64,000 nucleotides of DNA from Octopus vulgaris (lineage: Eukaryota). The first letter of the stretch is position 1, and every line of letters starts with the position of its first letter. Below, piece by piece: positions 3,030-62,880 of the stretch. The notes below the pieces were generated by a model. That model was not told the origin of the DNA and searched no databases. It was given only the letters and a program-made list of their open reading frames with translations. The stretch lies in NCBI GenBank assembly GCA_951406725.2, contig OX597818.1, forward strand, positions 25,172,001 through 25,236,000, written 5' to 3'. The translations under genes and the position numbers were made by a program.

Positions 3030-3644
3030 CATACATACATACATATATATATATACATACATACATATATATATACATACATATATACATACATATATAT
3101 ATACATATATATATACATACATACATACATATATATATATATACATACATACATATATATATATACATACATACATATATATATATACATACATATATAT
3201 ATATACATACATACATATATACATACATACATATATATATACATACATACATACATATATACATACATATATATAAACATACATACATATATACATACAT
3301 ATATATAAACATACATACATAAATATATACATACATATATATACATACATACATATATATATACATACATATATACATACATACATACATATATATATAC
3401 ATACATATATACATACATACATACATATATATATACATACATATATATATACATACATATATATATACATACATATATATAAACATACATATATACATAC
3501 ATATATATAAACATACATATATACATACATACATATATACATACATACATATATATATACATACATATATACATACATATATATATACATACATATATAT
3601 ATACATACATATATATATACATACATATATATATACATACATAC

Positions 3645-3710
<66 letters not shown>

Positions 3711-3755
3711 ACATACATACATATACATACAAACATATATATACATACATATATA

Positions 3756-3787
<32 letters not shown>

Positions 3788-4701
3788 CATATATATACAA
3801 ACATATATATACATACATATATATACATAAATACATATATATACAAACATATATATACATAAATACATATATATATATATACATACATATATATATACAT
3901 ACATATATATATACATACATATACATACATATATATATACATACATACATATATATACATACATACATATATATACATACATACATATATATACATACAT
4001 ATATACATATACATACATATATATATATACATACATACATACATATATATATATACAAACATATATATATACAAACATATATATATACGTACATATATAT
4101 ATACATACATATATATATATACATACATACATATATATATACATACATACATATATATATACATACATACATAAATATATACATACATACATATATATAT
4201 ACATACATACATATATATATACATACATACATATATATACATATATATATATACATACATATATATATACATACATATATATATACATACATACATATAT
4301 ACATACATACATATACATACATATATATATACATACATACATATATACATACATACATATACATACATATATATATACATACATACATATATACATAAAT
4401 ATATATATAAACATACAAACATATATACATAAATATATATATATATATACATACATACATATATACATACATATATATACATACATACATATATACATAC
4501 ATATATATACATACATACATATATACATAAATATATATACATACATACATATATACATAAATATATATACATACATACATATATACATAAATATATATAC
4601 ATACATACATATATACATAAATATATATATATATACATACATACATATATACATACTTATATATATATACATATATAGATACATACATATATACATACTT
4701 A

Positions 4702-4733
<32 letters not shown>

Positions 4734-5080
4734 CATATATACATACATATATACATACATATATACATACATACATATATACATACATATATACATACAT
4801 ACATATATACATACATACATATATATATATATATACATACATATATATATATATACATACATACATATATATATATATATACATACATATATATATATAC
4901 ATACATATATATATATACATACATACATATATATATATACATACATACATATATATATATATACATACATACATATATATATATATACATACATACATAC
5001 ATATATATATATACATACATATATATATATATATACATACATATATATATATATATACATACATACATATATATATATAT

Positions 5081-5115
<35 letters not shown>

Positions 5116-5628
5116 CATACATACATATATATATATATACATACATACATATACATACATACATACATACATATATACATACATACATATATACATACAT
5201 ACATACATATATACATACATACATATATACATACATACATATATACATACATACATATATATATATACATACATACATAAATATATATATATATACATAC
5301 ATAAATATATATATATATACATACATAAATATATATATATATACATACATACATAAATATATATATATATACATACATAAATATATATATATATATACAT
5401 ACATACATAAATATATATATACATACATAATATATATATACATACATATATATATATATACATACATACATATATACATACATACATATATATATATATA
5501 TACATATATACATACATACATACATACATATATATATATATACATATATACATACATACATACATACATATATATATATACATATATACATACATAAATA
5601 CATACATATATACATACATACATACATA

Positions 5629-5669
<41 letters not shown>

Positions 5670-6053
5670 ATATACATACATACATATACATACATACATA
5701 TACATATATATACATACACATACATATATATGTACACATACATATACATATATATATATATACATACATATATATACACATACATATATATACACATACA
5801 TATATATACACATACATATATATACACATACATATATATACACATACATATATGTATATATATACATATACATACATACATATATACATACATATATGTA
5901 TATATATACATATACATACATACATATATACATACATACGTACATATATACATACATACTTACATATATACATACGTACATATATATATACACACACTTG
6001 TATACACACACACATACATACATACATACATATATACATACATATATATATAT
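2255..6053. repeat. Compound (TA)n/(TACA)n microsatellite, ~3.8 kb
   Basis: Direct reading; local blocks of TAAA/CAAA variants. Confidence 0.97.
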
Positions 6054-6190
6054 GCATCAAACTCTCATGCACCAAATGGCAGTTGCAAAAAACCATTCGT
6101 GAGGTAAAATCATGTAGCAACACCAAATGGCGGTGCCCCAGCATGGCCACAGCTCAAGAGCTGAAATTGGAAAACATAAACATAAACAAT
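6054..6190 (+). mobile_element. 3'-terminal ~135 bp of CR1/L2-group LINE (subfamily A-like)
   Basis: Homologous to the 3' ends at 471-600 and 31943-32070 (GGCGGTGCCCCAGCATGGCCACAGCTCAAGAGCTGAAA); tail (AAACAT)n; TA repeat on both sides. Confidence 0.88.
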
Positions 6191-6536
6191 ATATACATAC
6201 ATATAAATACGTACATATATGTATACATATATATACATAAATACATATATATATATATACATAAATATATATACTTATATATATATATACATACATATAT
6301 ATACTTATATATATATATACATACATATATACACATACATACATGTATCCACATGCATATATATACATACATATATATATATACATATAAATATATACAT
6401 ACATATATATGCATACATATATATACATATATACATACATATATATGCATACAAATATACATACATATATATACATATATATATACATACATATACATAC
6501 ATATATACATACATATACATACATATACATACATAC

Positions 6537-6567
<31 letters not shown>

Positions 6568-6761
6568 CATACACATATATATACATATATACATACACAT
6601 ATATATACATATATACATACACATATATATACATACATATGTATACATACATACATATATATATATATACATACATACATATATACATACATACATATAT
6701 ACATACATACATATATACATACATACATACATACATACACAGACATATATATATATACATA

Positions 6762-6821
<60 letters not shown>

Positions 6822-6963
6822 CACATATATACATACATACATATACATATATACATACATACATATATATACATACATATACATACATACAAATACATAC
6901 ATATATATACATACATATATACACATACATATATATATATATACATACATACAAATACATACA

Positions 6964-6999
<36 letters not shown>

Positions 7000-7009
7000 C
7001 ACATACATA

Positions 7010-7047
<38 letters not shown>

Positions 7048-7217
7048 CACATACATATATACACATACATATATATATATACATACATACATATATACAC
7101 ATATATATATATACATACATATATACACATACATATATATATATATACATACATATATATATACTTACATATATATATACTTACATATATATATACTTAC
7201 ATATATACATATACATA

Positions 7218-7257
<40 letters not shown>

Positions 7258-7391
7258 CATACATATATATATACATACATATATATATACATACATATAT
7301 ATATACATATATATATACATACATATATATATACATATATATATACATACATATATACATACATACATATATACATACATATATACATACA

Positions 7392-8065: not shown

Positions 8066-8149
8066 GCCTGTCTTTGTATGAAACAATTGTACTAAAAAAC
8101 TAATCCATTCTTGTTGCTTTATTCTCGTATATACATAGATATATATATA

Positions 8150-8684
8150 CAGAAGCTACACAAAGAAAATCGTCTCAATGCAAAATATCAGCTACTGGGA
8201 AAGACTGAAGGTATTAAACCTCTTCTCCCTAGAGCGGAGGCGGGAGAGATATGCGGTGATATACATCTGGAAAATCCTGGAGGGTCTCGTCCCAAACTTT
8301 GGCAATCAAATTTACCCCAACCGCAGAACGGGGTGCCGCTGCGTGGTGCCAAGGATTCCAACATCACCATCAAAATACAGGTCCAGATACTGCAACAGCT
8401 TGGGTTTCAGAGGACCACAGCTCTTTAACATCCTCCCTAAATGCCTGAGAGACTTACATGGTGTGGATGTGGGTCTCTTTAAAACTAAACTGGATCTCTT
8501 CTTGTTGGGAGTCCCAGATGAACCTACCGCACGACAGGAGACGCGGATGCGGGCAGCAGCATCGAACTCCCTTGTTGATCAAGTGCCACGTATCAGAGGT
8601 GGATTCACAAATTAGTGTAGCTCATTCAGCGGTGGTGCCCCAGCATGGCCGCGGCCTACGGGCTAAAACATTTTTAAGGATTTA
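8150..8684 (+). mobile_element. 5'-truncated CR1/L2-group LINE, subfamily C (ORF2 C-terminus plus 3' UTR)
   Basis: ORF 8178-8615: [20 protein letters not shown]...[14 protein letters not shown]...VPDEPT; 3' motif GGTGCCCCAGCATGGCCGCGGCCTACGGGCTAAAAC; short TA repeat on the left and long TA repeat on the right. Confidence 0.9.
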
Positions 8685-9362: not shown

Positions 9363-10924
9363 ACTCTTTTACTCTTTTACTCTTTTACTTGTTTCAGCCA
9401 TCCGGCTGAGGCTATGCTGGGGCACCGCCCTTGTTGCTACCCTCTCTAAGTCCAGTTTGCCGTGGCTGGCCACTGATCTAAGAGAGAGTTTGTAGCTGCT
9501 GCCCTTAGGTTACCTTTGTACCTTGCAGTGGGTTCATCTGGGATCCCGGAAAGCAGCTTGTCTAGATGTTTTTTGAAAATGTCCACATCCGCATCATGTA
9601 GATCTCTTAGTTTTCTTGGCAGTTTGTTGAACAGCTGAGGGCCCCTGAACCCCAGGCTATTACAGTATCTGCTCCTTACCCTGGATGTGGAAGACGGGAC
9701 CTTTGGCACCACACAGTGACGTCCTGTACGGGGATTGGAACAGCTCTCAATTCCAAAATTTGGTGCTAGTCCCTCCAGGATTTTCCATATGTATATCACT
9801 GCATATCTCTCTCGTCTTCGTTCCAAGGAGTACAAATTGAGTTCCCTAAGCCTCTCCCAATAGTTCTTTTCTTTCATGGTGGAAATCCTCTTGGTGAAAT
9901 GTCTTTGGATTGTCTCAAGCTCTGTGGTTAGTTTGACACTATGCGGTGACCACAGTTGGGAGCAGTAGTCCAGGCGGCTTAGGACAAATGTCCTCCATAG
10001 TGTCAACATGGTCTCGCAGTCTCTTGTCCGGAATGTCCTCAGGATCCAGCCAGTGAGTCGTCTGCACATTGTCGCCACCTTCGCGATGTGTGAAGAAAAA
10101 GATGCATCGTCACTCATGTCTATCCCCAGGTCCCGTATTGATTTCGATACTGGGATTTCGATCCCTCCTGGACCAGTATAGTTGTGTTGTAATGTATATG
10201 TGTTTACAGCTTGATATTGTAAGGCTTGAAATTTACCAGCATTAAATTGCATGTTGTTGTCTTCAGCCCATTTGTATATGGCATCCAGATCTTGTTGTAA
10301 AAGGTCAGCATCAGCTGGGTTTTTGATTGCCTATGCTACCTTTGTGTCATCAGCATAGCTAGTGAGGGATGTTGTTTGTGCTACCAAGGGCATGTCAGAG
10401 AGCGCCACCAAAAACAGCAAGGGTCCCAAGGTTGTGCCCTGTGGCACCCCGCTTGCTATTGGTGTCTTTCCCGAGAGGGCTCCATTGGCTGCAACCATCT
10501 GGCTTCTGTCCTTCAGGAAGTCATGTATCCACTCACCTACTTTTCCTGTTATGCCGAGTCTAAGTAATTTGTGACATATCACTCCGTGGTCGACTTCGTC
10601 AAAGGCCTTCGCAAAGTCGAGATATACCACATCCACCTGTGAGCGATCCAGTAGTTGTTTCAGTACCCAGTCGTAGTGTTGTAACAGCTGCGTAAGGCAG
10701 CTTCTTCCTGGGCGAAAGCCATTCTGTGTGTCAGTAAGACGGTTAGTTTCTTCGAGGAACATGATCAGTTTTTTTCTGATGATTCGTTCCATGACCTTAC
10801 TTATGTGTGACGTCAGGGAGACTGGCCTGTAGTTATTGGCCTCTGCTCTACTCCCGCCTTTGTGGATAGGGCATATGGTGCCTTCTTTTAGCGCCCTGGG
10901 CAGTTTACCGTTAGCCAAGGAACC
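9363..10924 (-). mobile_element. 5'-truncated CR1/L2-group LINE, subfamily B
   Basis: ORFs 10331-10918 and 9446-10252 are one RT frame broken by a TAG at 10331 ([36 protein letters not shown]). Tail (GAGTAAAA)n follows CAGCCGGATGGCTGAAACAA. Confidence 0.92.
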
Positions 10925-10998
10925 ATATATATATTATATACATACATACATATATATATACACATATATACATATATATATATATACATACATACATA

Positions 10999-11030
<32 letters not shown>

Positions 11031-11969
11031 CATACATATACATACATACATATATATACATACATACATACACATACATACATACATATATATACATACA
11101 TACATATATATACATACATACATACACATACATACATATATATACATACATACATATATATATATACATACATACATATATTTATATACATACATACATA
11201 TATTTATATACATACATACATATATACATACATACATATATATATATACATACATACATATATATATATACATACATACATATATATATACATACATACA
11301 TACATATATATACATACATACATACATATATATACATACATACATACATATATATACATACATACATACATATATATACATACATACATATATATACATA
11401 CATACATACATATATATACATACATACATATATATACATACATACATACATATATATACATACATACATATATATACATACATACATACATATATATACA
11501 TACATACATATATATATATATACATATATATATATACATACATACATATATATATATACATACATACATATATATACATACATACATATATATACATACA
11601 TACATATATATACATACATACATACATACATATACATACATACATACATACATATACATATATACATACATACATACATATACATATATACATACATACA
11701 TATATATATATACATACATACATATATATACATACATACATATATATACATACATACATATATATATATACATACATATATATATATACATACATACATA
11801 TATATATATACATACATACGTATATATACATACATACATACGTATATATACATACATATATATATACATACATATATATATATACATACATACATACATA
11901 TATATACATACATACGTATATATACATACATACATACGTATATATACATACATATATATATATACATAC

Positions 11970-12003
<34 letters not shown>

Positions 12004-12082
12004 ACATACATACATATACATACATATATATATATACATACATATATATATATACATACATACATATATATATATACATACA

Positions 12083-12123
<41 letters not shown>

Positions 12124-12257
12124 ACATACATATATATATATATATACATACATACGTATATATACATACATACGTATATATATATATACATACATACATA
12201 TATATACATACATACGTATATATATATATACATACATACATATATATATATATATAC

Positions 12258-12305
<48 letters not shown>

Positions 12306-12347
12306 ACATACATACGTATATATATATACATACATATATATATATAC

Positions 12348-12404
<57 letters not shown>

Positions 12405-12439
12405 CGTATATATATATACATACATATATATATATATAC

Positions 12440-12472
<33 letters not shown>

Positions 12473-12678
12473 CATACATACATACATATATATATACATA
12501 CATACATACATATACATACATACATATATATACATACATACATATATATACATACATACATATATATACATACATACATACATATATATACATACATACA
12601 TACATATATATACATACATACATATATATACATACATACATATATATATATACATACATATATATATATACATACATA

Positions 12679-12719
<41 letters not shown>

Positions 12720-13026
12720 ACATACATACATATATATATACATACATACGTATATATACATACATACATACGTATATATACATACATATATATATATATA
12801 TACATACATACATATATATATATACATACATATATATATATATATACATACATACATATATATATATACATACATACATATATATATATACATACATACA
12901 TATATATATATACATACATACATATATATACATACATACATATATATATATACATACATACATATATATATATACGTACATACATATATATACGTACATA
13001 CATATATATACATACATACATATATA

Positions 13027-13094
<68 letters not shown>

Positions 13095-13823
13095 CATACA
13101 TATATATATATACATACATACATATATATATATACATACATACATATACATATATACATACATACATATACATATATATATATACATATATACATATATA
13201 TATATATACATATATACATATATATATATATATACATATATACATATATATATACATATATATATATACATACATATATATATATACATACATATATATA
13301 TATACATATATACATACATATACATATATACATATACATACATATATATACATATATATACATATACATATATATACATATACATATATATACATATACA
13401 TATATATACATATACATATATATACATATACATATACATATATATACATATATATACATATACATATATATACATATACATATATATACATATATATACA
13501 TATATATACATATACATATATATACATATACATATATATACATATATATACATATACATACATATATATACATATATATACATATATACACATATATACA
13601 CATATATACACATATATACATATATATACATATATATACATATACATACATATATATACATATACATATATATACATATATATACATATACATATATATA
13701 CATATACATATATATACATATATATACATATACATATATATACATATATATACATATACATATATATACATATATATACATATACATACATATACATATA
13801 TATACATATATATACATATATAT
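10925..13823. repeat. Compound (TA)n/(TACA)n/(TATACA)n microsatellite, ~2.9 kb
   Basis: Direct reading; TACG variants concentrated at ~11.8-13.0 kb. Confidence 0.97.
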
Positions 13824-16800
13824 CTTGCAAACAACTTGCACATGCAAGTGCTACCAGTTAAAAGCTCCGTATATCGGAAGCTAGCAAGTGTATGGGGTCA
13901 TCAGGAGAGAATGCGCGCCGTTTCGGGGCCTACCTCTCGACGGCATCAATGCGCACCGGCCCCCTCACTGATATGAGGCCCCGCTTGCTAGATCAGCTGG
14001 TTATGATGAACTCAATATACTTCTAGCCATCGCTCATCGTCACTTTTTAACCAAATCCAGTGGCTAGCCTTCTCCACTGTAGATTGGATATCAGTCATGG
14101 TGGTATTGACTTTACGATGAGTTAGGCCTAACGATAACAACAGTCGTCTCACGCTGTGTCCTACAAACCCTCTACATCCGACTTCGATAGGAAAATGTTC
14201 CGCTTTCCAGCCTGCGTCTTCATATTCCTCGAGGAGGTTTTCATAACGGTTTAATTTTCGAGCTCGAGCGGCGTCCATATTATCTTCGTGAGGAACCGTT
14301 AGCTCGACTATATTTAAAACTTTCTTTCTTTCACACCACATCAAAATATCTGGTTTTTTCGAAACTGGGATGGGAAAGAAAACCTGGCACCCAGGTAAAT
14401 CTGCAGTTACCTCCCAATAGTCGTTCCACTTTTCATTTTTCTCAGGAAGTTTCTTGGTCTTCTTCTTGAAACGGATCTGCTGACCTGGTCGCACGAAGGT
14501 AATGAACTCTCTTGATGGTACTTTTAACGATTTTTCCTCAGTGTTGTTGAGATGAATTTGATTCTTTATAGCATTGAAGATAACCTTAAGGACCAAGTTG
14601 TGCCTCCATGTGTACCTGTTCAATGCTAACGAACAGTTGGAAAGAATATGTTTTAGTGTACCGACTTTTCCACATTTGCAGACGTCATTCTCTAAGACGT
14701 TCCATCTTACTAGATTCGTAGGTGATGGCAAAACATCATAAGATGAACGAATCAGGAAACTCAGCCGAGATGTTGTCCACTTCCACATCTCATCCCAACT
14801 TATCTTCCTCTCAACAACATGTTCTTCCCATCTCGTCATCTGACCTTGATGAACACATCGGATCAAATGAAGCTCTCTTCTCTCTGCTTCTCTTGTTTTG
14901 ACGCTGTTGCTAACAACAGATCTGCGTTCACACGGCATCATGCTTGCAAACGGTCTGAACTGATCCGCGCCAAAACCAAATCCTTTCCGATGGTTCTGCG
15001 TTGCTCCCACCATATCTCTGTGTGTAAGAGAAGACAAGATGTTGTCAGTTTCTGCTTCTGCTTTCCACTTCCTGGCTGTTTTCACCTCTGGTGGGTTACG
15101 CCTGATTTCCATATCCTTCGATTCTCTCAGCATCATGACCGTCCGTATCTTCCCCAACTTATATATTTCGACTATTGATGCTATTGGTAACTGCAACGAA
15201 CCTCTTTTACGATAAAGAGCTGAGCTGTTCAACATACGAGGTAGACCTAGCCACTTTCTAATGAACACATTACATTTTTGTTCGATCTTTTCAACTCGTG
15301 ACAATGCTACCTCGTATATTAAAAGTGGCCACGCAAGTCGCGGGTACAGGCCGAACTGCAAGCACCAAATTTTATATTTACCTGGTAACTTCGAAACATC
15401 AATCGCTGATAACCCAGCCTCGGCCTGTTTCATAATTTCAATCCCACGACTTCTATCTGACAATGTTCCAGCGTATACTCGTCCCAAGCTCTTGACGGGC
15501 TCTTCCTTGACTGTTGGAATGCTTTCTTCCGATATTCGAAATTTAAATTCTTTCTGCACTCCCTTAACAAATGTCAGACTACGCGACTTTTTTGCTCTAA
15601 ATCGCATCCTTGACCACCTTACACGTTCGTCTAATCTCAAAAGGGCATTCTGCATGATTTGTTTATCTGTAGCTAGAAGTGTCACGTCATCCATGAAGGC
15701 TTTCTTAGGCGATTGTACATGGGCGATTTGTTCCGAAAAATCTACACCTTTCAAAATCAACTCCATGACTAAGATAAACCACGTGACAGATATTGTACAG
15801 CCAGCAGCAATGCCAACCTCCAATCGGTGCCAATTTGTTGTAAAACTTCCAGTTGTAAACCTCATTTCGAAACTTTCATAGTACATCCTCATTATTTTGA
15901 TCACTTTGTCAGGAATGTGGAAGTGGTCCATGGCTGTTATTAGTAATTTGTGTGGCACTGAACCATACGCGTTAGCTAGGTCGAGCCATACCACGTTCAG
16001 ACTTTTCTTGTTCTGTTTGGCATCCTGAATCGCTTTCCAAATCAAAAAACAGTGTTCAACGCATCCAGGGATCCCGGGGATTCCGGCCTTTTGAACAGAT
16101 TCATCAACATATCCGTTACTCTGTAAATATGTCACTGTTCTCCTCGACAGAATTCCCATAAAGATCTTGCCTTCCACATTCAATAAGGATATCGGCCTAA
16201 ACTGTTTTATGGTCTTTGCATTGGCCTCTTTCGGCAGGTATATACCTTCTGCCTTACACCAATCCTCTACTATAGTCTCCTCGCGCCACAGTTGTCGGAT
16301 TAGGACGAAGAGCTTCTTTCGCAGACGATTGCAGTATTTGTAGACTTTATATGAGACGCCATCACCTCCTGGGGCACTCTTCGCTCTAGCTTTTCTTACG
16401 AAGTCATTCACCTCTCTCTCCCTGATGTCCCCAATCTGGAATTCGATATCAGGTCCTGAGAGATGATTTAGCCCATGTAGAGATGGCAGCGGCTGATTAC
16501 GGTGCGGATCGCTGTAGGTTTCCTTGATATGAGCATCCAATTCTTCTTTAGTGCACGATAAAGTACCACTCTTCGGCTCAGTGAACAGCTTCTTAGTAAA
16601 CCCGTACGGGTCCTTCAGAAACTGCCCTCGAGTCCTTTTACTTTCTTTTCGACGCTCATATCGGCGAATATGTCGTTGCACATAACGACATTTCCTCTTC
16701 AAATCGTTATACAGCAACGCAAGGCCAGGTTTCTCATCTAGTGCAGCACATCTCCATCTCTTTCTTAAGTCGGACTTTTCCTTCCTCAACTGCTGCATTT

Positions 16801-17138
16801 TTCTGATCCTCCTGCTTGGTCCACACTTTCCTTTCTCTAGTCGGATATTCTCTTTTATTCCAAATAAATCTCTTGCTACATCGTATATTGAGCTTGATAA
16901 TTTTCCCAGTTTTTCCACTGTAGAGCCTGTCATTTTATAAAGAGTCCGACAAACCTTGTTTTCAAACTCTTTATATTTCACTTTCTCATTAGCAGCAGGC
17001 CACAAAACCCTCGGTTTCCTCTGAGTATTATCCGATGCACCGGTTTCATGACTTGTAGTTTCTTCACGTGAAGAGTTCTGTGCTGTAGCATTTATCGATC
17101 CGCTGTGGTTTGAGTCCGGGGATGATTTGCCACGTGAC
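13824..17138 (-). mobile_element. HERO-like (R2-group) non-LTR retrotransposon with RT, CCHC finger and RLE; 5'-truncated; no poly(A)
   Basis: Uninterrupted frame 17135 to 14012: [99 protein letters not shown] ~190-nt 3' UTR runs directly into TA repeat. Confidence 0.88.
14012..17135 (-). CDS. RT/RLE polyprotein of the HERO-like element (N-terminally truncated, ~1040 aa open)
   Basis: Non-repeat part of ORF 14012-19618, with no stops; the upstream poly-YI portion is microsatellite read-through. Confidence 0.8.
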
Positions 17139-26830
<9,692 letters not shown>

Positions 26831-26831
26831 T

Positions 26832-47958: not shown

Positions 47959-50900
47959 ATCATCATCATCATTTAACGTCTGCTTTCCATGCTGGCATGG
48001 GTTGGACAATTTGACTGAGGACTGGCAAGCCAGAAGGCTGCACCAGGCTCCAATCTGATCTGGCAAAGTTTCTACAGCTGGATGCCCTTCCTAATGCCTA
48101 CCACTCCGAGAGTGTAGTGGGTGCTTTTACATGCCACTGGCATGAGGGCCAGTCAGGTGGTACTGGCAATGACCACACTCAAAAGGTGATTTTTATTTGC
48201 CACCTACACAGGAGCCAGTTCAGTGGCACTAGCAGTGACCACTCTCAAATGTTGTTTTTCTTGTGCCACTGGAACATGTGTCGGTAAGGTGACACTGGCA
48301 ATGATCATGCTCAAATGGTGCTTTTTACGTGCTACCGACATGGGAGCCAGTCATTGGCTCTGGCAACAATCACGCTTGGATGGTGCTTTTAACGTTCTAC
48401 TGTCTTTGGCCACGTCAGTGATTTTGATTTCACTTGTCTCAACAGGTCTTCACAATCAAAGTTTATTGTCCAATGAATGAAGGGTACTCATAAGTGGGCT
48501 GGTTATAAACCACAGTTATAGGCCATGGGTTATGGTCTCACTTGGCTTGTCGGGTCTTCTCAAGCACAGCATATCTCCAAAGGTCTCAGTCACTAGTCAT
48601 TGCCTCGGTGAGGCCCAATGTTTGAAGGTCATGCTTCACCACCTCATCCCAGGTCTTCCTGGGTCTATCTCTTCCACAGGTTCCCTCAACAGATAGGGTG
48701 TGACATTTTTTCATACAGCTGTCCTCATCCATTTGCAACACATGACCATACAGGCACACCACATCTGATGTTTCTTAAGTCCAACTTTTCTCTCAGGGCA
48801 CTTACACTCTGTTGTGTATGCACACTGACATTATACATCCAGTGGAGCATACTGGCTTCATTCCTTCCAAGCTTATGCATGTCCTCATCAGTCATGGTCT
48901 ATGTTGCACTGCCATGTAGCATGGCTGTTGATACACATGCGTCATACAGTCTACCTTTTACTCTGAGTGAGAGGCCCTTTTCACCAGCAGAGGTAGGAGC
49001 TCTCTGAACTTATTCTAGCAGCTACGATTTCAGAGTATCTACCCCTACTAGCTACTTGGTTACCTAGGTAATGGAAGCTATCAACTACTTCTAGTTTTTC
49101 TCCCTGGAATGTGGCAGAAGCTGTTCTTTGCATATTTTCAGTGTTTATTGCACCTGAGCATTTGCCACATACAAAAACTATCTTCCCAGTTAGCCTTCCT
49201 TTCATATTGCTGCACCTCTTATGTGTCCAAAACTTACACCGGGTACATCCTATGGAGTTTCTATCTACACCTTTTCTACAGATTGAGCAGGGCCATCCAC
49301 CTGAAGGGATTTGTGGTTTGTCTGCCTTCCTACTTATTAAGACTTTGGTTTTAGCTAGGTTGACTCTAAGGTCCTTCCATTCTAATCTTTGCTTCCACAT
49401 CTGAAACTTCTCCTCTAGTTCTGATAGCGACTCAGCAGTTAGAGCAAGGTCATCAGCATATAGAGGCTCCCAGGAGCATCCTGTCTTGAATTCCTCTGTT
49501 ATTGCCTGGAGAACTATGATGAATAAGAGGGCGCTGAAGACTGCATCCGTGGTGGACGCCTACCCCTATCTGGAATTCTTCACTGTACTTGTTGCCAACC
49601 TTCACCTTACTGACAGCATCTCTGTAAATGGCTTACACAGCTCTCACTAACCACTCATCTATCCCTAGTTTCCTCATTGACCACCAGATAAGGGATCGGG
49701 GGACTCTGTCGAAGGCTTTCTCCACGTCAATGAAAGCCAGGTACAGAGGTTTATCTTTGGTTAGGTATTTCTCCTGCAGCTGTCTTACCAGAAATATAGC
49801 ACACCCAAACTGCATCTCATCTAAACTGACTCTCTCCCTAATTAGTTGGGCTATGACCTTCATTACCTGATCTACCTCCTTGATACCTTTGTAGCAGTTG
49901 ATTATGGTGCTGCTACACTAGTGATTGGGTATGACTCCTTCATGTATCACCTGAGTGACTAAACAGGTGACTAAGCTATAGCTGACAACGCCAGATATTT
50001 TGAGCACCTCTGCGATGATTTCTGATGGGCCGGTGGCTTTCCCTGTCTTCATACCCATTATTGCTTTATCTGCCAAGGTACTGTCAATTCGGATAGCTGG
50101 TCCCTCTGTTGGGTCAGAATTCAGCAGACTCTCTTTCTCTCATTCATTCTCTTTATTTAGCAACCTTTCATAGTGGCGTCTCCAAACCTCTCTCTTTGCA
50201 GCCTCATTTAATGCAAATGAATCATCATCCATGCGGACACATTTCTCTCCTATGACATCACGATTCTCTCTCACACACTGTCTTGCTACTCAAAATACCT
50301 CAAGTCTTTGGTCCTCATGACACAGAACATTGGCAAATTTTTTCTTATCTGTTTTCCCTCTGGCTAAATAAATGTGTCTCCTCGCTTTCCTTCTGATACA
50401 GTTCCCTGCTACCACCATTCTTCCAGTCCTTCCAAGCCCGTTTCTTTTCCCTAATGGCCCTATCAACTACATTGATCCCCCACCACGTTACCTTGAGTTG
50501 AGAGGGGACTTTGCACCATCCACAAATCTGGTCAGTGACCCTCAGCAGGTTGTCCTGTAGAAACCCCCAGTTGTCTTCCACATCATGTGATGCTATATCC
50601 CTCTTTATTTCGTCAAAAGCTTTGAGCAATACGTCTCTAAATCTCTGTCCATTTGCAGGATCTTTAAGCTTCCAGACCCTTCTCCATGCTAGTTGTCTTC
50701 TGGGCATCCATTTAGCCCTGATCCTGAAGTCACTAACTACCAGTCTATGTTGTGGGGTACATTCTTCACCTGGGAAGGTTTTGGCATTTATAAGCAGCTA
50801 TCTTTCCCTTTTTCTGGTGAGGATGTAGTCAATTTGGCTAGTGTGTCTACCAAATTGGTAGGTGACTAGGTAACTGGCAGGTTTCTTGAAGTTAGTATTG

Positions 50901-59679: not shown

Positions 59680-62600
59680 TGACTAAGGTAATCGAGGTAG
59701 TCAGAGTATGTGACAGAATACTGAAGATTAGATTAGTGCTCCATCATAGTTTAGCAACTATTATATTGGCCTATGCCCCTCAGCCAGGGCTACCCGATGG
59801 ACAGAAAGACCGTTTCTATGACACCCTACTGCAGACCACCTCATTGACGAACGACAAGGACCTTCTCTTTGTGGTTGGTGACTTCAATGGGCATGTTGGA
59901 TGAGATGCTGGGGGGCTTCCATGGCGTACATGGAGGCTACGGTTATGGTTCCCGCAACGAGGAGGGAACCAGGCTGCTGGAGTTCTGTGATGCGAATAGT
60001 CTTATGGTTTGCAACACTAACTTCAGGAAACCGACAAGCCACTTGGTCACCTACCGATCGGGCCAGCATACTAGCCAAATTAACTACATCCTTGCCAGAA
60101 AAAGGGAAAGATGGCTGCTTATAAATGCCAAAACCTTCCCAGGTGAAGAATGTACCCCACAACATAGACTGGTAGTTAGTGACTTTAGGACCAGGACTAA
60201 GAGGATGACTAGAAGACGACTAACATGGGGAAGAAGGGTCTGGAAGCTTAAAGACTCTGCAAATAGACAGAGATTTAGAGACATGTTACTTGAAGCCTTC
60301 GACGAAATAGAAGGTGGTATAGCTACACATGGGGTAGAAGATAACTGGACGCTTCTAAGGGACAACCTGCTGAAAGCCACTGACCAGATCTGCGGCTGGT
60401 GCAAAGTCCCCCCAAGACCCAAAATAACGTGGTGGTGGAACAATATTGTTGACAGGGCTATTAGACAAAAGAAACAGGCTTGGAAAGACTGGAAGAACGG
60501 TGGTAGCAGGGAAGTGTATCAGGGAAGCTTGGAGGCAGGTGTATATAGCCAGAGGGGAAGCAGATAAGAAAAAATTTGCCAATGTTCTGCGCCGTGAGGA
60601 TGAAAGACTTGAGATATTTCGTATTGCTAGACAGTGTGTGAGAGAGAATTGTGACGTGGTAGGAGAGAAATGTGTTCGCAAGGATGACGGGTCACTTGCG
60701 CTAAATGAGGATGCAAAGAGAGAGGTTTGGAGATGCCACTATGAAAGGTTGCTGAATGAGGAAAATGAATGGGATAAAGAGAGTCTGCCGAATATCGACC
60801 CAACAGAGGGACCAGCAATCCGAGTTGACAGTTCCTTAGTAGTTAAGGCAATTAAAAGCATGAAAACAGGGAAAGCCCCTGGCCCATCAGGAATTACAGC
60901 AGAGATGCTCAAAATATCTGGTAGTGTTGGCTATAGCCTAGTCACCCGTATAGTTAACCAGGTGATACACGAAGGAGTTATACCCAATGATTGGGGTAGC
61001 AGCATAATAGTCAACTGCTACAAAGGTAAAGGTGACGCTCTAGATACAAATAACTACAGGGGTATCAAGCTGCTGGATCAGGTAATGATCTAATTAGAGA
61101 GAGGGTTAGCTTAGATGAGATGCAGTTTGGGTTCGTGCCAGGAAAAAGTACTACTGATGCTATATTCCTGGTAAGACAGCTGCAGGAGAAATACCTAGCC
61201 AAAGACAAGCCCCTGTACCTGGCTTTTGTTGATATGGAAAAAGCCTTCGACAGGGTTCCCAGATCCCTTATCTGGTGGTCAATGAGGAAACTAGGGATAG
61301 ATGAATGGTTAGTGAGAGCTGTGCGAGCCATGTACAGAGACGCTGCTAGTAAGGTGAGGGTTGGCAACGAGTACAGTGAAGAATTCCGGGTAGAGGTTGG
61401 GGTCCACCAAGGTTCAGTCCTCAGTCCCCTCCTATTTATCATAGTCCTCCAGGCAATAATGGAGGAATTCAAGACAGGATGCCCCTGGGAGCTCCTCTAT
61501 GCTGATGACCTTGCTCTAATTGCTGAGTCTCTATCAGAACTGGAGGAGAAGTTTCAGGTGTGGAAGCAAGGTTTAGAATTGAAGGGCCTTAGAATCAACC
61601 TAGCCAAAACCAAAGTCTTAATAAGTAGGAAGGTAGACCAATCACAAATGCCTTCAAGTAGATGGCTCTGCTTGATCTGTAAAAAAGGCGTAGGTAGAAA
61701 CTCTATAAGGTGCACCAAGTGCAAATATGGACACATAAGAGGTGTAGTAATATCAAAGGAAGACTAACTAGGAAAATAGTTTTTATCTGTGGCAGATGCT
61801 CAGGAGCAATAAACTCTGAAAATATGCAGAGACCAACTTCTACCACGTTCCAGGGAGAAAAACTAGAAGTAGTTGATAGCTTCCGTTACCTAGGTGACCA
61901 AGTCAGTAGCGGTGGTGGGTGTGCTGAAAGTGTAACTGCTAAGGTAAGAATAGCCTGGGCAAAGTTTAGAGAGCTCTTACCCCTGCTGGTGACAAAAGGC
62001 CTCTCGCTCAGAGTAAAAGGCAGACTGTATGATGCATGTGTACGTACAGCCATGCTACATGGTAGTGAAACATGGGCTATGACTGCTGAGGATTTGCGTA
62101 AACTCGCAAGAAATGAAGCCAGTATGCTCCGCTGGATGTGTAATGTCAGTGTTCATAATCGACAGAGTGTAAGTACCTTGAGAGAAAAGTTGGACCTAAG
62201 AAGCATCAGCTGTGGTGTGCAAGAGAGAGGTTTGCGCTGGTATGGTCATGTGATGAGAATGGCTGAAGATAGTTGTGCACGAAAGTGCCACACCCTAGCA
62301 GTTGAGGGAACCTGTGGAAGAGATAGACCCAGGAAAACATGGGACGAGGTGGTGAAGCACGACCTTCGAACTTTAGGTCTCACCAAAGAAATGACTAGAG
62401 ACCGAGACCTATGGAAGTATGCTGTGCGTGAGAAGACCCGGAAAGACCAGTGAGAACATGACCTGTGGCCTACATACCTTTCCTTCTTGGAACATCAATG
62501 GAAATTGCAGCTGTGGTTAAGCAAACCATCCAATTGTGGCCGTTGCCAGCGTCACCCCGACTGGCCTCCATGCCGGTGGCACATAAAAGCACCATCCGTT

Positions 62601-62880
62601 CAAGTCCGTTGCCAGCCTCGCCTGGCCCCCGTGCCGGTGGCACGTAAAAGCACCATCTGTTCATGGCCGTTTGCCAGCTCCGTCTGGCACCTGTGCGGGT
62701 GGCACGTAAAAAGCACCCACTACACTCGTGGAGTGGTTGGCGTTAGGAAGGGCATCCAGCCGTAGAAACACTGCCAGATCGGACTGGGCCTGATGCAGCC
62801 TTTTGGCTTCACAGACCCCAGTTGAACCGTCTAACCCATGCTAGCATGGAAAACGGATGCTAAATGATGATGATGATGAT
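59680..62880 (+). mobile_element. Long RTE-clade LINE (partial APE, RT, PHD, 3' UTR array, (GAT)n), frameshifted
   Basis: AYAPQ, GDFNGHVG, SQINYIL, GKAPGPSGI, NYRGIKLL, FVDMEKAFDRVPR, VGVHQGSVLSP, LYADDL, FRYLG and RWYGHV are spread over ORFs from 59604 to 62453. Confidence 0.93.

Follow-up and report, generated by a model that had tools for sequence, protein, structure and literature searches.

Retrotransposons of the HERO clade, which lack long terminal repeats (non-LTR elements) and of which HERO-1_BF and HEROTn are examples, encode a reverse transcriptase (RT), a CCHC finger, and a PD-(D/E)xK-type endonuclease within one open reading frame (ORF) (PMC7650587). Some HERO families are specific for microsatellites (Kojima and Jurka 2015, PMC4640811); HEROTn, HEROFr, and HERODr are listed as nonspecific (Mukha et al. 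2013, PMC3636483). Ribozymes that process the 5′ end of the transcript are established for the non-LTR elements R2 and L1Tc (PMC6765202). Penelope-like elements have a tandem or partial-tandem layout, a hammerhead in the terminal repeat, and proposed circular templates, and for one of them, PAc, an internal start of reverse transcription was shown in vitro (PMC11167929; PMC6765202). For the hammerhead itself, six block orders are defined, with type SGC among them validated (Eckert et al. 2023, PMC10085705). Here we analyzed a stretch of 64,000 nucleotides from Octopus vulgaris (GenBank assembly GCA_951406725.2, contig OX597818.1, positions 25,172,001 to 25,236,000), hereafter the window, whose coordinates are used throughout. 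On its minus strand, at 13824..17138, lies a 5′-truncated non-LTR retrotransposon (copy A), very probably of the HERO type, to judge from its sequence. The most unusual feature of the element, absent from a first-pass annotation of the same DNA, is the RNA of its 3′ untranslated region (UTR), in which we predict a hammerhead-like ribozyme with a split core.

The predicted ribozyme occupies 13881..13991 on the minus strand and, in the sense of the element, opens with helix A (13991-13979 pairing with 13897-13881) and hairpin B (13978-13963). Stem II (13963-13958 with 13930-13925), stem III (13944-13941 with 13920-13917), and stem I (13938-13934 with 13909-13905) follow, together with the core strands GAAA (13924-13921) and CUGAUGA (13904-13898). 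By analogy with the hammerhead core, self-cleavage is predicted after GUC at 13938..13939, 115 nt before the 3′ end of the element. Every ribozyme helix is complementary in the window copy.

Conservation was assessed in the best 80 of 326 confirmed metagenome loci (the related loci), in whose post-ORF sequence GAAAC followed by CUGANGA is recurrent. A descriptor was built that demands the order cleavage site, GAAA, and CUGANGA and requires stems I and III, while leaving stem II free. Eligible loci, 35 with the window copy included, were those that reach the C terminus of the protein and have a tail of at least 250 nt; the motif lies within 400 nt past the ORF end in 24 of them. It occurs in none of 3500 tails shuffled in 2-mer blocks, and the minus strand of 312,170 bases is free of it. 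Clustering of the 37 motif-bearing C termini compared gives 32 groups at 90% identity and 26 at 60%, with a median identity of 41%. The descriptor also fits two of the seven HERO-like loci of a genome collection. It fits none of 120 viral loci having the core pattern, two of which resemble ordinary type II hammerheads, and a search of viral contigs for related loci gave a single distant match. Rfam returned nothing but low-complexity microRNA-type matches on the TA array of the window, and no matches on eight related loci.

When 28 distinct motifs were aligned with MAFFT by sequence alone, 93.2% of the cells were paired and 12 of the 14 pairs showed compensatory change; the pairing score was reached by none of 500 shuffles, and slid controls gave 34 to 44%. 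Because the search required stems I and III, stem II provides an independent test: 87.9% of its cells are paired, and the G10.1-C11.1 pair is present in 27 of the 28 motifs. Hammerhead numbering is used here, together with the NUH rule for the cleavage site. Both are in line with the figure legends of PMC10085705. Core positions were also left free, and in the 25 best-scoring of 32 rows obtained in this way U16.1, A15.1, and U4 are invariant (25/25 each), C3 is kept in 24 of 25, position 17 is never G, and G never follows A9. The motif has the core and pairing features of the hammerhead class, namely the core CUGANGA, GAAA, U16.1-A15.1, and H17, covarying stems I to III, and G10.1-C11.1. Helix A has at least six pairs in 26 of the 28 motifs and beats its shuffles in 24, and a hairpin stands between helix A and G10.1 in the correctly anchored rows. 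We regard it as almost certain that the 3′ UTR forms a conserved structured RNA.

What sets the motif apart is the path of its strands. A canonical type SGC stem II, placed directly after CUGANGA, was considered and rejected, the pairing adjacent to CUGANGA being at chance (38.4% paired versus 40.1% in shuffles, with the terminal pair in 1 of 28 motifs). The partner strand of stem II is instead located some 20 nt upstream of the predicted cut, and the strand following A9 pairs farther upstream, as helix A. The predicted arrangement is an SGC-like core that is interrupted between A9 and G10.1, the interruption being spanned by a four-way junction made of helix A and hairpin B. Like type SGC, it has the block order S, G, C, a short linker between stems I and II (3 nt in the window copy), and two pseudoknots; in type SGC, however, CUGAnGA leads directly into stem II, whereas in the HERO motif stem II draws on an upstream strand, and helix A and hairpin B separate A9 from G10.1 (PMC10085705). 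Eckert et al. assume a direct passage from CUGAnGA into stem II, and known hammerheads are stated there to have at most 1 to 2 nt separating CUGAnGA from its stems (PMC10085705). None of the six described permutations fits the HERO motif, in which CUGAnGA and stem II are not continuous. Type SGC comes from metatranscriptomes, and the text and supplement of that paper that were searched contain no link to retrotransposons. The HERO motif may work like type SGC despite the differing topology.

By analogy with the hammerhead, the 3′ UTR RNA probably cleaves itself. If so, the assumption that CUGAnGA cannot be interrupted would be overturned, and the motif would be a new permutation that is invisible to standard models. 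Hammerheads with additional helices were reportedly described by Weinberg et al. in 2015 and could overlap with the HERO variant. In the literature searched, which lacks the bulk of subscription papers as well as Repbase Reports and patents, no report of a HERO ribozyme was found; neither Rfam nor that literature yielded a description of this hammerhead arrangement.

The ends of related elements may connect the predicted cut to replication. With numbering from that cut, the window copy ends at +115, and the poly(A)-free 3′ ends of three related families fall at +89 to +139. At one locus (L048), the post-cut half of the motif stands by itself upstream of the 5′ UTR, beginning at +1/+2 after an unrelated flank, and the match of the covariance model is confined to positions 64-143; in another contig (L022), position +2 comes first and the stretch +2..+91 recurs at the opposite end. 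A second HERO ORF appears head to tail, 587 to 1186 nt on, in 10 of the 18 loci whose tail past the ORF is 1 kb or longer.

Our preferred reading, to which we give somewhat more than even weight, is that copy A is a young, 5′-truncated HERO insertion in a TA array and that its 3′ UTR RNA with the hammerhead core cuts the transcript, giving a unit-length, self-clamped template. We infer each mechanistic step after the structure itself. Transcription would proceed across a locus that is tandem or has terminal repeats, and a cut at each ribozyme copy would release an RNA that begins at +1 and ends at the following cut, its two ends held together by pairing in helix A and stems I to III as a nicked or ligated circle. 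The restriction-like endonuclease (RLE) would nick the target DNA, and the RT would start internally, about 90 to 140 nt after the cut, copy to +1, cross the nick, and continue through the ORF. An early stop would leave a 5′-truncated copy such as that in the window; a full pass would produce a copy that starts at +1 and bears a short direct repeat at its termini, and additional passes would build head-to-tail arrays. R2-type RTs are said, in the title of a cited paper, to copy across noncontinuous templates. The nick-crossing route is a serious possibility, though one toward which we would not quite lean. Somewhat more tentative is the proposal that a hammerhead topology opened between A9 and G10.1, with its four-way junction, cuts the element RNA throughout the HERO clade and clamps it as a nicked or covalent circle to be copied by an R2-like enzyme from an internal start, such that an RLE-bearing long interspersed nuclear element (LINE) follows a Penelope-like or rolling-circle route to terminal repeats and tandems. 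If the RNA does cleave, this would change the view of how HERO elements are copied, give the clade a defined RNA-processing step, and offer a testable reason why HERO ends lack poly(A) and why terminal repeats and tandem copies occur.

The proposed route resembles that of the Penelope-like elements in its tandem layout, terminal hammerhead, and internal start of reverse transcription. The two differ in machinery: Penelope-like elements combine a GIY-YIG nuclease and a telomerase-like RT with minimal type I hammerheads in pseudo-LTRs, whereas the HERO copy has an R2-like RT and RLE fold and a larger, pseudoknotted motif (PMC11167929; PMC6765202). R2 and L1Tc share with it the non-LTR mode and a self-cleaving RNA that sets a transcript end, predicted in the case of HERO, and R2 has the same protein fold; their ribozyme is, however, hepatitis delta virus (HDV)-like and confined to the 5′ end, while the HERO motif lies in the 3′ UTR of copies retaining their 3′ end (PMC6765202).

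Several observations weigh against self-cleavage and the copying route built on it. The strict search missed 11 of the 35 eligible loci; four of these have mismatched or degenerate versions (L005, L022, L026, and L051, the last with two core changes), four have the motif elsewhere in the locus (L013, L014, L055, and L080), and at three (L010, L037, and L057) no motif was found. The 28 aligned motifs were chosen by the descriptor, so stems I and III are partly selected. In the window copy, helix A was matched by 18 of 50 shuffles, the anchor being misplaced in that row, and the minimum-energy fold of the UTR is unremarkable (z of −0.77), containing helix A without the core arrangement. A break between CUGAnGA and its stem could disable catalysis, given the 1 to 2 nt at most in known hammerheads. 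The RNA might then be a noncatalytic or protein-dependent 3′ UTR structure that binds the ORF protein, as a descendant of a hammerhead or by convergence; its core is broken where, according to PMC10085705, no described hammerhead is, a cut within the template could hinder reverse transcription, and the two substitutions in L051 point the same way. We consider this quite unlikely, since both the NUH rule and the entire core persist at a median protein identity of about 41%, with the stems varying freely, and since the 5′ ends of two elements coincide with the predicted scissile bond.

These two ends are themselves open to another interpretation. About 8 5′ starts could be located, of which these are 2, and one of these 2 is merely where a contig stops; the other starts, at −85, −26, −22, +97, and so on, are contig breaks, some of them inside the neighboring unit. 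Apparent tandems may stem from assemblers joining terminal repeats, and ribozyme cleavage was dispensable for the in vitro insertion of one Penelope-like element (PMC11167929). The starts at +1/+2 in L048 and L022 would fit equally well if the cut did no more than release a downstream unit's 5′ end from a read-through or tandem transcript, the role that the HDV-like ribozyme plays for R2, with reverse transcription starting at an ordinary run-off 3′ end and the last copy left uncut; R2 and L1Tc provide the precedent for 5′-processing ribozymes (PMC6765202). Such a role would require that an identical ribozyme copy at the 3′ end stay uncut, and it does not by itself explain the precise poly(A)-free 3′ ends of the three families or the frequent head-to-tail joins; we hold it to be somewhat unlikely, and favor cleavage that yields a self-clamped template.

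Two side observations concern the related loci. Locus L038 contains, at 3420-7275, two head-to-tail HERO units with differing ribozyme-like motifs, which suggests a mixed tandem of two subfamilies. Short repeated purine-rich motifs occur in the HERO 5′ UTRs of distant families, about 50 to 130 nt after the core motif (L019, L020, L028, L035, L049, L053, L065, and L078), and are possibly an internal promoter or a protein-binding site.

The element carrying this RNA was delimited at 13824..17138 by its sequence boundaries, the match to a second copy described below, its homologues, and a by-eye match to HERO references. Its single ORF (14012..17137, minus strand; stop codon at 14014-14012) has 1041 codons, is open up to the 5′ junction, and lacks a start codon of its own. 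The RT domain covers residues 305-549 (15491..16225; Pfam RVT_1, PF00078, E value of 7.2e-19), with the catalytic motif FMDD at residues 481-484 (15697-15686). Downstream, conserved columns mark a CCHC zinc knuckle, C-x-C-x7-H-x4-C, at residues 820-835 (C820, C822, H830, and C835; 14633..14680) and the RLE (14255..14605), with RHN at 845-847 and PD..E..K at 929/930, 945, and 961; all of these features lie on the minus strand. FMDD, CCHC, RHN, and PD..E..K are invariant or nearly so in an alignment of 41 proteins, in agreement with the roughly 1040 open codons and the four motifs listed in the first-pass annotation. A structure model of the ORF built on the same alignment has a mean pLDDT of 84, and its top structural matches are R2 proteins, over about 900 to 1100 columns with E values down to 1.6e-31 and 16 to 17% identity; the motif-level alignment of the RLE to R2, taken alone, is weak. 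RVT_1 is the sole Pfam domain given for the protein, and with R2 proteins as its best folds it shows neither the GIY-YIG endonuclease nor the telomerase-like RT of Penelope-like elements. The 3′ UTR (13824..14011, minus strand) contains, beyond the ribozyme, two short terminal hairpins (13878-13866 and 13849-13834). It has no poly(A) and ends directly on an (AT/ATGT)n array, and the 5′ end likewise adjoins the array; both repeat junctions and the missing poly(A) had been noted before.

The order RT, CCHC finger, and RLE in a single ORF is that of the HERO clade, from whose described members the window copy differs in lacking the N-terminal finger and the 5′ UTR (PMC7650587). Of 7997 candidates scored in a protein search, 366 were returned as relatives, with 60 to 67% identity for the best of them, and the named ones belong to Aplysia, Branchiostoma, and one fish. 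Counted by eye against the supplementary alignment of PMC7650587, 37 of 59 residues over one RT stretch are identical to HERO-1_BF; in the same alignment HERO-1_BF and HEROTn are nearer, and the rows of R4, NeSL, and the leech element HERO-1_HR are visibly more distant. By this RT stretch and the structure alignments, the RT is far nearer to the HERO references than to R2, R4, or NeSL, and the earlier label "HERO-like" is borne out. An N-terminal DNA-binding region had also been presumed lost: a C2H2-type finger pattern lies upstream in 45 of the 88 homologues aligned near the first residue of the element, beginning about 35 residues before it in the closest ones, and since homologues carry this finger upstream, copy A appears to be truncated just past it. 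The proposed youth of the family likewise finds support in the intact ORF and in short-read contigs identical to the window copy, with zero differences. These contigs came from four sequencing runs, with the comparison covering the interior of the element and masking the repeat-adjacent ends at both junctions; in the two large DNA runs the 3′ end exceeds the 5′ end about 100-fold in summed contig depth, a measure that does not equal copy number. Depth profile and identical contigs fit a repeated, 5′-truncated, and partly young family. Within 13824-14250, depth drops several-fold at about 14140-14250, with long loose contig ends, and a short nonautonomous derivative that keeps the ribozyme-like 3′ end may be responsible.

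The window holds a second copy of the element (copy B, 26832..30147, plus strand), inverted relative to copy A, 99.7% identical, and with the same ends; it has three coding indels and lies beside an N gap. Both belong to a mirror block of about 16 kb (window positions ~13817-30154) centered near 22,400, with noisy sequence and the N gap. A second anchor of the block is a CR1-like 3′ fragment (19644..19964, minus strand) that is mirrored at 24645-24937, the pair sharing two diagnostic bases missing from a third copy, the polarity of the TACAT/ATGTA array flips near 22,400, and the sequence between the copies looks noisy. Copy B was therefore rejected as a second TA-targeted insertion, on account of the shared ends, the mirrored CR1-like fragment, the polarity flip, the noisy middle, and the N gap. 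The mirror block, with copy B, is probably a fold-back artefact of assembly; a real inverted duplication is a possible alternative origin, and independence of the two copies is excluded in either case. With copy B inside the mirror block, the window offers one independent insertion junction. At the boundary of hairpin B and stem II (13959), copy A is one G short relative to copy B, and both forms occur in the read contigs.

The first-pass annotation had proposed that the family integrates specifically into (TA)n and constitutes an undescribed kind of system. Insertion into a TA array stands, with arrays on the 3′ side (10925..13823) and the 5′ side (17139..19643) of the element, though these are impure mixtures of TA and TACA and not simple (TA)n. 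An endonuclease that chooses TA arrays, which would be compatible with the ribozyme, would account for an array at both ends without poly(A) and has precedent in the microsatellite-specific HERO families (PMC4640811); moreover, the TA-free 24 kb of the window contain no HERO copy. Leech HERO, Togen on (TG)n, and Dong are RLE elements likewise found directly on simple repeats, but such families rest on many aligned junctions (see the Togen supplement), whereas the window HERO has one junction in a TA-saturated region. The TA array makes up 88% of bases 1-36,800 outside LINE fragments and 0% of 40,301-64,000, and seven other LINE fragments in the TA-rich region, six CR1-like and one RTE-like, are flanked by TA on both sides; the RTE-like family has four relatives in the TA-free region, all with non-TA flanks. 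In related elements from other organisms, a simple repeat occurs 60 to 260 nt after the cut in 2 of 28, the longest TA run being 8 nt. The exact 3′-end pattern of the element has no metagenome match. Among the rows listed for the sequencing runs, non-TA sequence makes up three loose ends on the 5′ side (run X1) and an extension of 480 bases (X14), although they may represent older subfamilies, and by eye the RT is nearer to HERO-1_BF and HEROTn, the latter listed as nonspecific (PMC3636483), than to HERO-1_HR of the leech. With a single independent insertion against this background, we think TA specificity unlikely; the premise of an undescribed system is weakened in addition because microsatellite-specific HERO families are already published (PMC4640811), among which TA targeting, if true, would be one more target.

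A 14-bp match between the two flanks was rejected as a target-site duplication, as 3485 of 20,000 random breakpoints in the same arrays equal it. The six CR1-like fragments (471-2254, 6054-6175, 8066-8683, 9364-10924, 19644-19964, and 31943-33508) belong to several subfamilies, are 70 to 98% alike, and in some cases have short-repeat tails, and none of them lies in the TA-free part; their case for an association with TA is as good as that of the HERO copy.

Two ORFs elsewhere in the window, at 35201-36388 and 48981-49559, which we take to be RTE-like, carry, immediately past the RT catalytic motif, a Cys/His insert that resembles a PHD finger (Pfam PHD, E values of 2e-5 and 1e-4). In the 3′ region of this RTE-like family, a 61-bp unit is repeated in tandem (37645-37806 and 62555-62717). 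HERO-like sequences also turned up within bacterial genome records (L082-L088), where they most likely represent contamination from an animal host. Two pairs of inverted repeats, 43940-44135/44567-44762 (98%) and 46068-46151/46774-46857 (82%), are possibly the ends of nonautonomous DNA transposons.

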